A stretch of 43,750 nucleotides of DNA from Coriobacteriia bacterium (GCA_009779675.1 WRDS01000003.1:1-43750); one strand, 5' to 3'; positions 456 to 5,998 are shown, counted from the stretch's first letter. The notes: generated by a model not told the origin, from the letters alone. Translations and numbers: made by a program.

Positions 456-2756
456 TCAGGCCTGGTTGACGATCCCCACAAACGCATCCACCACTTCGGG
501 ATCGAACTGGGATCCCGCCTTGCCCTGGATCTCGGCGATGGCATCCACCGGTGCCATGGCATTCCGGTACGGTCTCGACGATGTCATGGAGACGTACGCG
601 TCCGTAACGGCAAGCACCCGCGAGCCCATCGGGATGTCGGACCCGGAAAGGCCGAGCACATAGCCGCTGCTGTCATAGTGCTCATGGTGGTGATAGACGA
701 TGGGGACCGCGCTCACAAGCGCCGAGGTCTGCCCCAGCACATCCGCCGCCACTGTGGGGTGCATCTTGAGCAGCCCCTGCTCAATGGTGGTAAGCGGGCG
801 CTCCTTGGCACTCACGAAATCACTCGTGGCAGGCATGCCGATATCGTGCAGAAGCGCCGCCATGGCCGTCGCCTGCCGCTCCTCATACGGCAGCCCGAGC
901 GCCTCGGTAAGCCGCTGCGTAAGCTCATGCACCCGGTCGGTCGAGCCCAACGAGTACGGGTCCGTCTTCTCAAACGCCAGCGCAAGCGCCCGGACGGTCT
1001 CCATGTGTCGGTCACTGGAAGCCGCAAACTCATGCGCATTGCGCAAAGAGACTGCGGTGACCTTCCCGAGAGCCTCCAAAGCGCTCGTAAGCTTGGCAGA
1101 CCTCCTGGCATGGAACTTCCTGCTGCCCACATTAAGCACGCCGAGCGGCCCCAGGTCGTCCGTAATAGGTACGGTGATCGCCGAGATGACCTCGTGCCTG
1201 CGCGACGCAGGTCCTTTGCCGTTCAGGTTCTCGATCACGAGGGATTTCCCTGTTGCCAGCACCACGCCGGCAATCCCATCCCCGCTACGGATGGCTGCCT
1301 GCTCGATGACTTCCTCCGGCAGCCCCCTAGAGGCACGGATGCGCATTGCCCCATCCGGGCAGGTGAGCATCACTGACCCGGTATCTGATTTGGCGACTTC
1401 CAGCGCCTTGTCCAAAGTCGCCTCGATGATCGCTTGCGGGTCTACAAGGTGCACGATCTCTGACGCTGCCCGAAGCAACAATGCCGCTGACGAGGACTCG
1501 TCATTGGTCACATCAAGCGCCAACGCTGCAGCAAGAGCGTTATCGAGACCTGCTGCGACCTCGGCAAGCCTGGTGTCGTCCGGACTCGAGGTGAGCAGGT
1601 CGAGCGCTGCGACCCCTGCAGTATCGCGTGCGACTATAGGGATCGCATACTGAGAGACGCCAGGCTGTCCGCCGGGCATCTCATCGTAGGTGCCGACCGC
1701 AGGCACCCCGGAGCTGACAGCGCGCCCAAGGGCGCCTGTAGAGGCAGTCACAGGAATGGTCTGCGCCACGCCCGGGCCAACCGAGTCCAAAGGACGCAAC
1801 GTGTCGGTCGCCTCATCGAAAAGCCAGAGGTGCGCCTGGAGGACCGGCGCGACTAGCCCGGCAGCCCTCATGAGGGCCTCCAGCACCTCCTTGGTGTCCA
1901 GCCCGCCTGGCTCCTTGGGTGTTGCCCCATTGGAGCTTGCGTTGCTTGTTGCGCTCTCGGCGCTTTCGATATCCTTGGCGTTCTCGGCGCTACTTTCGAC
2001 GGCGTCTTCGGCCTCTTTTGCGGATCCTCGCCCCTTGGTGCCGCCTTCTGTGGCTGCCGCGCTGGCTACCGCGCCCACCATTACCGCAGTCGGAACTGCC
2101 GGCGCTACTGGAACACGCCACCACGTGCCTGAGATGACGCTTTCATCCATACTTGAGATGCCCGCGCCTGAGATGCCGTTGCCGGCACCAGCGGCAAAAG
2201 ACCGGCCTTTCGGCTCAACAGCCAGAAAAGCGATAGGGGATCCCTGCGGCAAAGGCTCTTTGGCCGAGAGCAACGGAGGCTCGACCGTTGCGCCTTTTTT
2301 GCCGCCCTTTGCAGCCCTGCCGGAAAACAGCCGGCCGTTCGGCGGTTTTGACGGCTTCGATTCGCGGGCAGGGATGATCTCTGGAGGGGCGCTCGGCACC
2401 AGTGGGCCTGCTGGTCGGGTAACTGGCGGGCCCATCGGCACGGAACCGGGACCGCTCGGTGCAGGAGCTGGGTTGTGTGGCGCAGGAGTGGGGGCAGTCG
2501 GTGCGAGAGTGGGAGCGCTCGACACAACGGTGGGGGCGCTCGGTGCGAGGGCTTTGGCCGCTTGGCGTTTGGCGGACCTGCGTGCCCTCCCCCGCCGCCT
2601 GTCCCACAACGCCCAGCAGACACAGCCCACAAAGAACAGGAAGGCAGCCGCAATCGGCCCCCAGTTCATCAGCAGTTCGCGGGAGATCCCCAAACTACCC
2701 ATCAAACTGCCCAGTGCAATGGCGGCTGGAACAGACGCTACTTCAATCGCGTGCAT
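456..2756 (-). CDS. Membrane-anchored GAF + HD-GYP domain protein (c-di-GMP phosphodiesterase-like, partly degenerate)
   Basis: N-terminal TM (IAAAFLFFVGCVCWALW), Pro/Ala-rich linker, GAF-like regions (GDGIAGVVLATGKSL..., PLGVLNV), C-terminal LLHDIG...HP...HHEHYDSSGY...IP...D...RPYR...QFDP. Confidence 0.85.
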   Translation of the reverse strand: MHAIEVASVPAAIALGSLMGSLGISRELLMNWGPIAAAFLFFVGCVCWALWDRRRGRARRSAKRQAAKALAPSAPTVVSSAPTLAPTAPTPAPHNPAPAPSGPGSVPMGPPVTRPAGPLVPSAPPEIIPARESKPSKPPNGRLFSGRAAKGGKKGATVEPPLLSAKEPLPQGSPIAFLAVEPKGRSFAAGAGNGISGAGISSMDESVISGTWWRVPVAPAVPTAVMVGAVASAAATEGGTKGRGSAKEAEDAVESSAENAKDIESAESATSNASSNGATPKEPGGLDTKEVLEALMRAAGLVAPVLQAHLWLFDEATDTLRPLDSVGPGVAQTIPVTASTGALGRAVSSGVPAVGTYDEMPGGQPGVSQYAIPIVARDTAGVAALDLLTSSPDDTRLAEVAAGLDNALAAALALDVTNDESSSAALLLRAASEIVHLVDPQAIIEATLDKALEVAKSDTGSVMLTCPDGAMRIRASRGLPEEVIEQAAIRSGDGIAGVVLATGKSLVIENLNGKGPASRRHEVISAITVPITDDLGPLGVLNVGSRKFHARRSAKLTSALEALGKVTAVSLRNAHEFAASSDRHMETVRALALAFEKTDPYSLGSTDRVHELTQRLTEALGLPYEERQATAMAALLHDIGMPATSDFVSAKERPLTTIEQGLLKMHPTVAADVLGQTSALVSAVPIVYHHHEHYDSSGYVLGLSGSDIPMGSRVLAVTDAYVSMTSSRPYRNAMAPVDAIAEIQGKAGSQFDPEVVDAFVGIVNQA

Positions 2757-2881: not shown

Positions 2882-2960
2882 TTCGTTGCCTCCTGCTCTG
2901 AGCCGTCAAGGTCGCCGGTTTCGTTGCTTCCCTGCTTCGAGCCGTCAAGGCCGTCAGGGC
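2882..2960. repeat. Degenerate ~38-39-bp tandem duplication at the thiN 3' end
   Basis: TTCGTTGC..CCTGCT..GAGCCGTCAAGG at 2882-2911 and 2920-2950, followed by a short GCCGTCAGGG echo that includes the stop codon. Confidence 0.65.
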
Positions 2961-3652
2961 CGAACTGCTCTTCTACTACTCTTTCGGCTAACATACTGCG
3001 CAGGTTTATACCCTTCAGCCTTAGGAGAGAAAACACACATTACTCCATCGTGCACGGTTATTGCCATTTTTTCATCGGCAAGCACGTTGCTCATGCCGAG
3101 CGAGGCCGTACAAGCAAGCCTATGCCTTTCAAGCCCCCACTTCGCTCCGCGCACGCTCACAACCGCATCTGAGGGCAGCGCCAAGAGCGAGACAACGCTC
3201 CCTGCGCCGGACAGCTCCAAGACCTCCCCTGATCTGACTACCCAGCCTGCAAGCCCCGGCTCAACGAGAGCCACACGCAAAGCTGGCGTACGCACTACAC
3301 TCCCCAGCGCCGCAAGGGTGTGATCCGCCCGCCCGCCAACGACCCCTGTTACCGTTACCTCCTGCGCGCCGAGAGAAACCGCCTCGGCAAGTGCAAGATC
3401 GAGGTCGGTCTCGTCCTTCTCGGCGGGAAAGCGCACGGTCTTGATGCTATGCTGCTTCGCGTACTGCATGTCTTGAGCCGAGGCCGAATCGAGGTCGCCA
3501 ACGACCATGTCTGCGACTACGCCTGCCAGGATGCACGCGTGCAACCCGCCGTCGATAGCCACGACGCGGTCGTGCGAAGGAGCGAGCGCGCCGACGATGG
3601 CGGGCGTCTCGGGCTCCCCCGCCGCACCGACAAGGAGGAGGGTGCCGCTCAT
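2954..3652 (-). CDS. thiN: Thiamine diphosphokinase (thiamine pyrophosphokinase)
   Basis: VAIDGG, VGDLDS, FPAEKDETDLDLAL, GGRADHTLA, G.KW.L, SLGMSN motifs; ATGA overlap with thiT. Confidence 0.93.
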   Translation of the reverse strand: MSGTLLLVGAAGEPETPAIVGALAPSHDRVVAIDGGLHACILAGVVADMVVGDLDSASAQDMQYAKQHSIKTVRFPAEKDETDLDLALAEAVSLGAQEVTVTGVVGGRADHTLAALGSVVRTPALRVALVEPGLAGWVVRSGEVLELSGAGSVVSLLALPSDAVVSVRGAKWGLERHRLACTASLGMSNVLADEKMAITVHDGVMCVFSPKAEGYKPAQYVSRKSSRRAVRP

Positions 3653-4260
3653 GAGATGCCTCGTTGCGAGGAGGCTGCACGCTCAAGCACGCTTCGTTGC
3701 AGCGGGACCGTGCGCTCGAGCACCGGGTACAGGGCGACCGCAAGGACCGCGCAGGCAAGCGTCGAGGGGATCATGTAGCTCAGGTTATAGATAGCCGAGA
3801 AGAGGAGCACCGGCTGACCCGTCGGCGCATTCGAGGCGAAGAACACCGCTCCAGAGATGAAATGGCTTACGAAGCGCCCCGCCCCGCCAAGTATGACAAG
3901 CAGGGTGACAAGCGAGGATGCCTGGAGCCTCTTGCCATCCGCAAGCGTCTCCCTGACGCGAGATGTCCCAAGACCGACAAGCCCACAAAGCGCAAATGCA
4001 AGCGGGTAGTCGAAAACAAGTTGCACCGGATGAATGATATAGGGATCAAGCAACAGGCTGCCAGCACCCCAAAGCGCACCGGTGATAAGCCCCGGGACCA
4101 GGCCTCGGCGCAACCCGACGACCATGATCGGCAGCATATCGAGCGCGACAGTGCCGCCTGCAATGTTCCATGGGAGTTTAACGCCAAGCAGCCAAAGCGC
4201 GGCTGAAAGGGCGACCGCAAGTGCCATCTCGGCAAGAAGGCTGACCCTGTCGCTTCGCAT
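3649..4260 (-). CDS. thiT: Energy-coupling-factor thiamine transporter S component, ThiT family
   Basis: LAEMALAVAL...GG.V...MLPI...RRG...G...HPVQ..FDYPLAF...RFVSHFISGAVFF...APTGQ...SAIYNLSY; multiple TM helices; AGGAGG RBS. Confidence 0.9.
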   Translation of the reverse strand: MRSDRVSLLAEMALAVALSAALWLLGVKLPWNIAGGTVALDMLPIMVVGLRRGLVPGLITGALWGAGSLLLDPYIIHPVQLVFDYPLAFALCGLVGLGTSRVRETLADGKRLQASSLVTLLVILGGAGRFVSHFISGAVFFASNAPTGQPVLLFSAIYNLSYMIPSTLACAVLAVALYPVLERTVPLQRSVLERAASSQRGIS

Positions 4261-4467
4261 GATCCTCCTACCTCTCTGGATGCACAGACACCCGCTTGGC
4301 CGAAAGACGGCAACGGCAGCGCAAAGGCAGGCGGGGACAACAGCGAAACAGCCCCGCGCCTAACAGACGACCCGCTTTGCTGGCCCCGCATTACCGGAAC
4401 CGTCTTTCGGTCGCGACGCTTGGAACGCCCGTCGCCTCTCAGCTACCTGTGCAGCTCCCGACACGGT
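4261..4467 (-). ncRNA. TPP-like riboswitch with variant P4/P5 arm and a translational expression platform
   Basis: Minus strand reads CGGGAGC-TGCACAGGTA-GCTGAGAG-[GCGACG..CGTCGC]-GACCG-AAAGA-CGGTTCCG-GTAATG-CGGGGCC, directly upstream of thiT-thiN. Confidence 0.75.
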
Positions 4468-4643
4468 ATTGATGACACCGATATGATGGCATAATGGAGC
4501 GTGATCGGCAATCGCCCGCACCCGATGCACATATGGCGCACACACGATGCACACAGGCAATAGCGCGCACGATGCATGCGCGCACGGGCGATGGTGCACA
4601 CAATGTATGTGTATGCGGACTGATATATCCGATGTGCCCAGCC

Positions 4644-5998
4644 CTAGAACAGGAGATCCCGCAGCTTGTCCATGACGTTGTCGGAGACCACGTTTTCTCC
4701 CCCATAGGTCTGGATGTTTGGCTTCACATCGTTGCAAGCACCTGGTAAATATGTGCCCCAGACCGACGAAAGAATCCCGGGGGGCGGTGAGGACAAGGAT
4801 GTCGTTACACGCGCCTATCGCGACCCCACCGGCAAAGTTCAGGGAAGTCCAATCCAGTCGCGACACCGATGAAGCCCCTGACCGCAAGGGAGTTGTTAAA
4901 CGCGTAGACCGCGATCTGCTGTGCGGTCTCATAACGATCTTGGCCACCGACACACCTGACTGCCGGGCTCGTGCTCAAGGCATTCAGCGACACCTCGACC
5001 CCCTGAGGAGACAGCTGCCGGTGAACCGAGTATGGTCACATCATCGATATTCAGGCTTGTAATGGTATCTGCTGCAGAAGCAGAGAGCGTCGCTGGACGG
5101 GTAAGCACGACCGGAATCCTGCTTATGTACACGCAAGAGGGGACACGGCGAGGCCGTCCGCGAAGTTGTCTCCTCTGGCTATAAGCGCCTTCTTTGCAAA
5201 GTCCCCGGTCGCAAAGCTTGCAATCTTGTTCGCAATAAGAGCACTCGTCTCATAACGGTCATTGCCCCCGATGCGCTCAATGCTGAGCCCAACATCTGTA
5301 AGCAAGCCCTCTACTATCTCAGAAACGGCTGCGGTAGAACCCATGATGTAGACTTTGCTGGCCTCTAAGCGCCTGACCTCATCAAGCGCACCGGGGCTTA
5401 AGGAGCTCGGTCTCGTGAGGAGAAGCGGGGCTCTAAGCGAGCCCGCGAGCGCGGAGGTGGAAAGCACGTCTGCGTAATTCATGCCAGTGGCGAGTATGAC
5501 CGCATTAGCACTCTCAAAGTCAAAGTTCTTCTTGCTAGCGTCAATCGCAGTCCCATAGCGGTCAGGGCCAGAAACGCGAGTGATGGGGTCGCGGGACCCG
5601 TCGATGAGGATGGGGACATTGGTCGAGCGGCGTGTGCCGTTGTCAAACTGCCCGCGACCGTTAAGCCCCCACGCCCAGAGCGTGCCGTCCTCCTTGATGC
5701 CGAGGGAGTGGCTGTCCCCTGCGCTCACGGCCTCCCATCCCACGAACCCTGCAGACAGGGACGTACCCCTGTCCGCCGTGAGAGCCGAACCCGCAGCTTC
5801 CGGTGTCGCGCCGCCCGGAGCCGCGACCGCCAGGGCACCGTTGCCCGGGACACCAGCAACCGTCGGGGCACCACCGCCCGGGACACCGCCTGCCTACGTT
5901 GCCCCCGGTAGAGCGCCCAGAGCGAGCGCGAGGCAAAGGAGCGCCGAGAGGCGTGCCCGCCGCCTCGTGCCCGCCGCGCTTCTAAAGACCTGATCCAC
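4644..5998 (-). pseudogene. Disrupted paralogue of the RCC1-repeat/cell-wall-binding-repeat-2 surface protein at 18301-20652
   Basis: GTG start at 5998 with GAGGGGG RBS; same signal peptide; in-frame TAG at 5894-5896 where the paralogue has Trp; one RCC1 blade; CWB2 repeats broken by about four frameshifts (~5130, ~4995, ~4835, ~4770); ends GGENVVSDNVMDKLRDLLF* like the paralogue. Confidence 0.9.

Follow-up and report, generated by a model that had tools for sequence, protein, structure and literature searches.

TPP riboswitches are studied as drug targets, and in the solved thiM and thiC structures the residues of J4/5 and J5/4 contact the pyrophosphate of the ligand through Mg2+. The L5 loop, with its UAAU core, docks on P3 in these structures, and the two-arm clamp spans a ligand of about the length of thiamine. 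TPP riboswitches are the commonest riboswitch class (McCown et al., 2017, PMC5473149). The portion of that paper dealing with TPP variants mentions many RNAs with mutations in P4-P5 whose affinity for thiamin is similar to that for TMP and TPP, a result cited there as "in prep." These variants are described as present in many bacteria, at times alongside other TPP switches in one genome, and the authors suggest that such RNAs could respond to thiamin, TMP and TPP as one combined pool. Literature searches returned no later full account of the P4-P5 variants announced in 2017, no paper describing the clade reported here, and none on TPP switches in Coriobacteriia.

The window, that is, the whole stretch of DNA that was analysed, comprises 43,750 nt from the genome of a Coriobacteriia bacterium (G000; GCA_009779675.1 WRDS01000003.1:1-43750). 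On its minus strand, a TPP-like aptamer (RNA 4471 to 4261) is located 5' of thiT and a thiamine pyrophosphokinase gene. Helices P1, P2, P3 and P3a are all present in the aptamer, together with the pyrimidine sensor CUGAGA and loop L5; where the pyrophosphate pocket P4-J4/5-P5 would be, there is one unbroken 8-bp hairpin. The RNA element reaches from near 4471 as far as the start codon (4260-4258), slightly past the coordinates of the initial annotation. For comparison with relatives, two alignments were used, which are as follows: (i) A1, consisting of 31 aligned aptamers, and (ii) A2, consisting of later-fetched loci (95 matches, 86 distinct) fitted to a covariance model. R1, a covariance model built from the variant, was applied to a sample of 151 genomes of the class. 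The features of the aptamer and of the operon are listed below with the evidence for each.

4369-4471, minus strand: complete variant aptamer from P1 to P1, plus short flanks (RF00059 25.1 bits over 4471-4360; R1 81 bits over 4470-4369)
4462-4466, minus strand: P1 5' strand CCGUG, partner 4372-4375 (alignment A1 and pair counts)
4372-4375, minus strand: P1 3' strand GCGG (alignment A1 and pair counts)
4458-4461, minus strand: P2 5' strand UCGG, partner CCGA at 4407-4410 (99-100% paired, almost invariant)
4460-4454, minus strand: CGGGAGC motif (sequence)
4442-4455, minus strand: P3 hairpin GCUGC-ACAG-GUAGC (sequence and pair counts)
4436-4442, minus strand: CUGAGAG, the pyrimidine-sensor bulge (J3-2) of TPP riboswitches (invariant in 31/31 aligned; agrees with the Rfam consensus CUGAGA)
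4413-4435, minus strand: P3a hairpin GCGACG...CGUCGC (5/6 pairs change on both sides)
4412-4408, minus strand: GACCG motif (sequence)
4380-4402, minus strand: continuous P4/5 hairpin, GGUUCCG/CGGGGCC (4401-4382) with loop GUAAUG at 4394-4389 (pairing and covariation)
3649-4260, minus strand: thiT, S component of an ECF-type thiamine transporter, start codon 4260-4258 (Pfam Thia_YuaJ, E 4.6e-44)
2954-3652, minus strand: thiamine pyrophosphokinase (TPK/thiN), 4-nt overlap with the end of thiT (TPK_catalytic, E 4.4e-24; TPK_B1_binding, E 1.6e-07)

All motifs named in the initial annotation (CGGGAGC, P3, CUGAGAG, P3a, GACCG and the continuous hairpin with GUAAUG) were recovered on the minus strand. 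The P4/5 hairpin is closed by C4402-G4380 across the bulged A4381, and the Rfam consensus strands CCUgAU...CGuAGGGA have no counterpart in the window RNA. The pyrimidine-sensor segment CUGAGAGG, aligned to the RF00059 consensus, is invariant in 31 of 31 sequences of A1. The pyrophosphate-sensor loop J4/5-J5/4 is missing in the window and in all aligned sequences (31 in A1, 86 in A2), which carry a continuous helix instead. The L5 sequence, GUAAUG or AUAAUG, is conserved, with AAUG invariant in A1.

The low RF00059 score that had been predicted, concentrated in the 5' half, was also observed. In sensitive mode, the window scored 25.1 bits (E 0.0097) against a gathering score of 54.3 bits, the well-aligned columns being those of the 5' half. 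The gathering score is not reached in the window, RF00059 gave no match at E <= 1 in a genome-wide search of G000, and none of the other Rfam families fits the aptamer better than the TPP model in a sensitive search of the window. Over the 151 class genomes, 55 exceeded the RF00059 cut-off, all of them belonging to three families (f25, f27 and f29) in which every genome has a match at E <= 0.01 (24/24, 13/13 and 30/30, respectively). No genome of the window's order in this sample scored above the cut-off (best 44.1 bits), nor did any of 41 related genomes. Rfam-based annotation therefore overlooks the variant throughout the window's order, and regulon reconstructions would wrongly call thiT-TPK unregulated.

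When the 41 related genomes, a set that contains G000, were searched at the DNA level, 32 of them (G000 among these) proved to have a similar leader. It occurs in 17 of 19 further members of the family of G000 and in many more families of the window's order. The altered P4/5 arm was identical in architecture in 30 of 30 extracted leaders, including that of the window. The structure tested on A1 has P4 and P5 as one helix with a single bulged nucleotide. Paired cells amount to 94.7% in A1 and 94.5% in A2, compared with 29-43% when the partners are slid. Two-sided changes occur at 15 pairs in A1 and at 18 pairs in A2, compared with 7.2 and 9.3 in shuffles, and none of 500 shuffles was as high. 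The three-way junction of P1, the P2-P3(-P3a) arm and the P4-P5 arm is thus backed by covariation in both alignments. P1 is 85.5% paired in A1, and all of its five pairs change on both sides in A2.

The P4/5 helix is 94.4% paired in A1 and 94.9% in A2, where 72 loci were chosen by a pattern fixing its three inner pairs and loop, and six of its eight pairs change on both sides in each alignment. One mid-helix pair in A2 is GC in 24, CG in 21, UA in 16 and UG in 16 sequences; because it varies so freely, no base identity is kept where the pyrophosphate pocket would be. Unpaired nucleotides left in the arm are restricted to one variable bulge (alignment column 97), and at the junction C76-G98 and A100 are nearly invariant in A1. 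The idea of groove recognition by strand polarity, derived from a pyrimidine-only 5' strand and a purine-only 3' strand of P4/5 in A1, was discarded, as GC and CG are about equally frequent mid-helix in the 86-sequence set. The covariation called for in the initial annotation was thus found, and its view that the element is no simple decay product is supported, with relatives sharing the pocket-less helix, including compensatory changes, at the same operon. Close relatives might have carried a canonical P4/P5; at thiT-TPK they carry the pocket-less helix instead. Judged from these alignments, the variant is a real, conserved and lineage-wide relative of the TPP riboswitch and not a decayed copy.

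R1 matches 103 of the 151 class genomes. In almost every genome of the window's order (f1 9/10, f19 30/30, f7 6/6, f2 6/6, and others) it scores 61-101 bits, a range also found in f24, f26, f28 and f30, which belong to other orders; in f25, f27 and f29 it reaches only about 26-37 bits. A few copies in f26 and f24 score 46-51 bits. Four of these (L093-L096) have a long insertion in P3a, and a fifth (G058) is cut by the end of its contig. In L093-L096, which come from f26 genomes of 0.9-1.5 Mb, the insertion lengthens the R1 matches to 130-165 nt, a Shine-Dalgarno sequence (GAAAGGA) follows the aptamer within a few nucleotides, and no convincing P1 was identified. A strict exact pattern of the variant core matched 72 times among species-representative genomes, almost always in metagenome-assembled genomes labelled Coriobacteriia, Coriobacteriales, Coriobacteriaceae, Anaerosomatales or Actinomycetota. 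Four matches labelled "Eubacteriales", one labelled Bacteroidaceae and one labelled Aeromicrobium are suspected to be binning or labelling artefacts.

The variant is followed by thiT and then TPK in 49 of 50 unique loci, and TPK is present in all 50; the single exception, L079, has thiD, thiE and TPK downstream. Among the 72 pattern matches, ThiT lies downstream in 58, TPK in 58 and both in 56. Six of the remaining matches have no more than 415 nt of downstream sequence, and two have ThiT without TPK (L180, and L167 with only 640 nt downstream). In the eight informative exceptions, the next gene is an ORF of about 270 aa in seven loci and thiM in L138. Pfam domains at the exceptional loci are ThiD (L115, L117, L183 and L079), ThiE (L117), ThiC (L115, L119 and L183), TPK (L115) and ThiM (L138), and the first ORFs of L119, L121, L144 and L169 are read as putatively ThiD-like. 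The genes next to the operon and leader in the window are unrelated to the riboswitch: a 766-aa GAF and HD (HD_5) protein with a long proline/alanine-rich N-terminal part (456-2756, minus strand) and a protein with RCC1 repeats and CWB2 cell-wall-binding domains (5123-5743, minus strand).

The initial annotation had seen in the control of an importer plus kinase a special fit to an altered ligand. This argument is weakened by our results. In other lineages, the variant also occurs 5' of thiD-thiE-TPK, thiD-thiC-TPK and thiM operons and is thus not specific to importer plus kinase; moreover, in Bacillota thiT loci, which served as a control and of which 400 nt upstream were examined, a canonical TPP aptamer (56.6-78.6 bits) was found in 8 of 18. 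Since thiC- and thiD-containing operons are also controlled, the regulon does not set the variant apart from ordinary TPP switches.

Searches with the window's ThiT gave homologs in the window's order as well as in f24, f26 and f28, but none in f25 (0/24 genomes), f27 (0/13), f29 (0/30) or f30 (0/1). ThiT and the variant go together across the class. Three genomes (G033, G146 and G156; loci L091, L092 and L090, respectively) have a thiT homolog preceded by no aptamer that could be recognised. By eye, the sequence up to thiT in G033 and G146 resembles the end of another coding region, and all three genomes carry a pocket-retaining aptamer type, described below, at biosynthesis operons. In G000, which is 94% complete, tblastn with queries from relatives returned no ThiC, ThiD, ThiE, ThiM, ThiG, ThiS/F, ThiH or YkoF, leaving thiT-TPK as the sole thiamine-related operon found with the queries used. 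The switch therefore guards what is apparently the only route to TPP in this organism. ThiL (TIGR01379) exceeded its curated cut-off in only 1 of the 151 class genomes, and members of the class seem to make TPP via TPK and not via a TMP kinase. The same count, which includes the families with canonical switches, led us to reject TPK versus ThiL as the divider between the two aptamer types.

A second TPP-type aptamer was found in nine genomes of the window's order, at L031-L035 and L080-L083 (G033, G032, G040, G035, G027, G054, G136, G156 and G146). Its 5' arm, CGGGAGCUGC...GCGGCUGAGAGG...GACCG, is nearly that of the variant; the pocket strands CCUG...GCGCAGGGA are kept and an extra GC-rich hairpin is inserted between P4 and P5. 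It reaches only 33.7-44.1 bits with RF00059, so that the Rfam cut-off misses this type too. It is located 5' of thiM-thiE-thiC, or of a ThiS-like/ThiF fusion with ThiG and a radical-SAM/BATS protein that is probably ThiH. Four genomes contain both a variant and a pocket-bearing aptamer. In G035, the variant (L026) precedes thiT and the pocket-retaining type (L034) precedes thiM; in G054 and G136, the variant precedes thiT, and L080 and L081 precede thiM, thiE (L080 only) and thiC; in G117, the variant (L079) precedes thiD-thiE-TPK and L078 (52.5 bits) precedes thiC. Canonical switches in the sampled loci of sister families were found before thiC, thiM, ykoF and ABC permeases.

Downstream of the aptamer, three further segments of the window's leader appear to make up the expression platform.

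4300-4310, minus strand: anti-aptamer strand CCGUCUUUCGG, perfect complement of 4400-4410, i.e., of the P2 3' strand, J2-4 and the start of P4/5 (11 bp; aptamer-forbidden fold)
4323-4331, minus strand: anti-SD CCUGCCUUU (pairs with the SD region in the aptamer-enforced and platform-only folds)
4264-4275, minus strand: Shine-Dalgarno region AGAGGUAGGAGG, core hexamer AGGAGG at 4269-4264 (unpaired probability)

Each of the three pairings proposed in the initial annotation is present. The 11-bp duplex of 4410-4400 with 4310-4300 is entirely Watson-Crick, and none of 200 dinucleotide shuffles of the platform contained one as long (p ~0.005). CUGUGCA (4287-4281) complements UGCACAG (4453-4447), although matches of 7 nt are common by chance. 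Finally, CCUGCCUUU (4331-4323) pairs with AGAGGUAGG (4275-4267) over 9 bp, including two G-U pairs. In the predicted folds of the window, CCUGCCUUUGCGC pairs across AGAGAGGUAGG when the aptamer is formed, and CCGUCUUUCGG pairs with the aptamer segment CCGAAAGACGG when it is forbidden. For 39 leaders with a clear thiT start, the ensemble with the aptamer helices favoured was compared with that in which P1 and P2 were forbidden. For the window's SD core, the mean unpaired probability rises from 0.18 in the aptamer-enforced ensemble to 0.41 in the aptamer-forbidden one; together with the 11-bp duplex, this yields a coherent OFF switch from the mutually exclusive folds that had been proposed for the window's leader. 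Across the 39 leaders, the mean SD unpaired probability is 0.29 with and 0.34 without the aptamer. Formation of the aptamer lowers SD accessibility by more than 0.2 in five leaders and raises it by more than 0.2 in none, the change being at most 0.2 in 34. In 35 of the 39, the unconstrained minimum-energy value equals the aptamer-forbidden value, and the ligand-free ground state is therefore predicted to be the alternative fold.

According to these folding models, the leader is most likely a translational OFF switch. With ligand bound, P1 and P2 would hold the aptamer together, so that CCUGCCUUU could pair with the Shine-Dalgarno region and block thiT translation; TPK probably follows the repression of thiT via the 4-nt overlap. 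Without ligand, CCGUCUUUCGG would invade P2, J2-4 and P4/5, the leader would refold, and the SD would become more accessible. The AUG is covered by an outer 8-9-bp helix (CCAUGGGC with GCCCAUGG) in L117 and L169, and L119 has its P1 3' strand positioned over the probable SD. Only four of the 39 leaders, the window's included, contain a contiguous anti-aptamer stretch that is significant (longest Watson-Crick, p <= 0.05); anti-aptamer complementarity was accordingly dropped as a general feature and is claimed for the window only. The same-genus relative L002 carries a matching change (GAGGGAC with GUCCCUU), which alone has a p of 0.72.

Single-sequence folding energies were no better than those of shuffles (z -0.62 for the aptamer, -0.06 for the platform) and were set aside as uninformative. 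Terminator control was rejected, since no terminator-like site was predicted and the hairpin GCGGGGC...GUCCCCGC (4357-4331) has no U tract. A promoter scan of the minus strand found none; by eye, a weak candidate (TTGCCG-17 nt-CATCAT) is seen just 5' of the aptamer. The spacer in this region (4511-4602) contains three direct repeats ending CACGATGCA (4516-4529, 4538-4551 and 4563-4576; spacing 22 and 25 nt) and an 8-nt inverted repeat, ATCGCCCG/CGGGCGAT (4511-4518 and 4585-4592). The repeats might represent a protein-binding site in the promoter region, or mere low-complexity spacer.

With respect to the ligand, we posit that the RNA is a functional TPP riboswitch (THI element) variant, spread across the lineage, which may sense thiamine compounds irrespective of their phosphates, a reading to which we give slightly better than an even chance. 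The RNA would recognise the pyrimidine-thiazole part of thiamine compounds with the phosphates unread, and its response would follow the pooled thiamine, TMP and TPP, not TPP selectively. Because the loop that usually reads the pyrophosphate is lost, the variant probably ignores the phosphate state; the missing Rfam consensus pocket strands in the window and the presence of both aptamer types in four genomes speak for such a reading. Against it, an OFF switch on an uptake and activation operon is expected of a TPP-selective switch too. By analogy, an altered ligand reading is plausible and consistent with the P4-P5 variants of McCown et al. (2017), for which the portion of the paper on TPP variants describes a loss of discrimination and not a preference for thiamine. 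The initial annotation had suggested that the element may sense unphosphorylated thiamine or another HMP-containing ligand. A sensor preferring unphosphorylated thiamine over TPP, in which free thiamine would set the thiT/TPK operons and TPP the thiC/thiM/thiE operons, seems doubtful to us; if true, it would constitute a natural riboswitch class selective for the vitamin and not the coenzyme, and cells with both aptamer types would run two separate circuits.

Among the rival explanations, the one to be taken most seriously, even if we regard it as unlikely on the whole, is that the variant is still TPP-selective, with the pyrophosphate recognised otherwise and the structure reflecting lineage-specific drift. 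Recognition could proceed, for example, by Mg2+ bound close to the bulge and to the invariant C-G pair that forms the base of P4/5, or along the helix groove. The near-invariance of C76-G98 and A100 at the junction would suit such a route, and the OFF logic and the controlled genes (thiT, TPK, thiD, thiE, thiC and thiM) match ordinary TPP feedback, as do the canonical TPP switches before thiT in Bacillota. However, apart from the variable bulge the arm has no unpaired nucleotides with which to build a pocket, and its mid-helix pairs vary freely. The same lineages keep canonical pocket strands at other operons, so the pocket is generally not dispensable in them, and discrimination is lost in P4-P5 variants according to the part of McCown et al. 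(2017, PMC5473149) that concerns them. It is very unlikely, in our view, that the variant senses another pyrimidine compound, such as HMP, HMP-P, HMP-PP or a thiamine degradation product. Strict conservation is confined to the HMP-sensing arm, and the genes behind some copies include thiD and thiC, whose products act on HMP compounds; yet it is a thiamine importer and a thiamine-specific kinase that are controlled in nearly all unique loci, the two-arm clamp is kept together with L5, and HMP-using enzymes were not found in G000 with the queries used.

A decayed, non-functional TPP switch, to which the low Rfam score and the unremarkable folding energies might point, is hardly tenable given the conservation across the order and beyond, the compensatory changes in the new helix and the constant position before thiamine genes. 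On an axis separate from ligand identity, it would surprise us greatly if the variant were an ON switch, in which the ligand frees the SD and induces thiT-TPK. The P1 3' strand of L089 (AUCGUUU), as read from its sequence, complements the SD and start region and would favour this direction, against which stand the 39 leaders, where enforcing the aptamer raised SD accessibility substantially in none and lowered it in five, and the ligand-stabilised outer helix predicted to cover the AUG in L117 and L169.

A natural form that has lost the entire pyrophosphate pocket across a clade, yet stays under selection, offers a clear-cut way of asking which portion of the ligand must be read by the RNA. 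The variant is also relevant to the control of thiamine uptake in Coriobacteriia that are auxotrophic for vitamin B1. Since no full account was found of the variants announced in 2017, what the clade offers is a set of actual sequences, a covariance model and, as an internal control, pocket-retaining switches from the same genomes as the variant. The kind of RNA to which the clade would belong is known but barely documented.

Compared with the TPP riboswitch as modelled by RF00059, the variant shares the three-way junction, P1, the P2-P3 arm and a second arm capped by GUAAUG or AUAAUG, as well as the CUGAGA pyrimidine sensor, the location in leaders of thiamine transport and synthesis genes, and a probable OFF control of translation. 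In place of J4/5-J5/4 and the flanking strands it has an unbroken, covarying helix with a single variable bulge; the P4/5 arm is about two layers shorter than that of RF00059, and the score lies far below the cut-off. The pocket-retaining type of L031-L035 and L080-L083 resembles the variant in lineage, in its nearly equal 5' arm and in scoring below the Rfam cut-off, and differs from it in the presence of the pocket strands and in its association with biosynthesis operons rather than thiT-TPK. With the HMP-PP riboswitch (thiS motif), the variant would by analogy share the sensing of a non-TPP ligand by a thiamine-pathway riboswitch; according to Atilho et al. (2019, PMC6478431), that RNA is a very small aptamer in a terminator stem, whereas the variant is a full three-way junction with no terminator predicted. 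With the P4-P5 variants of McCown et al. (2017, PMC5473149; Roth et al., in prep.), the clade shares an altered P4-P5, an occurrence in many genomes and the co-occurrence with typical TPP switches, here in G035, G054, G136 and G117. The likeness is one of description, the portion of the paper concerned giving no sequences, consensus or taxa, and the binding behaviour is reported there for their own variants. Within these bounds, the Coriobacteriia clade fits their description as an extreme case, in which the whole loop has been deleted.
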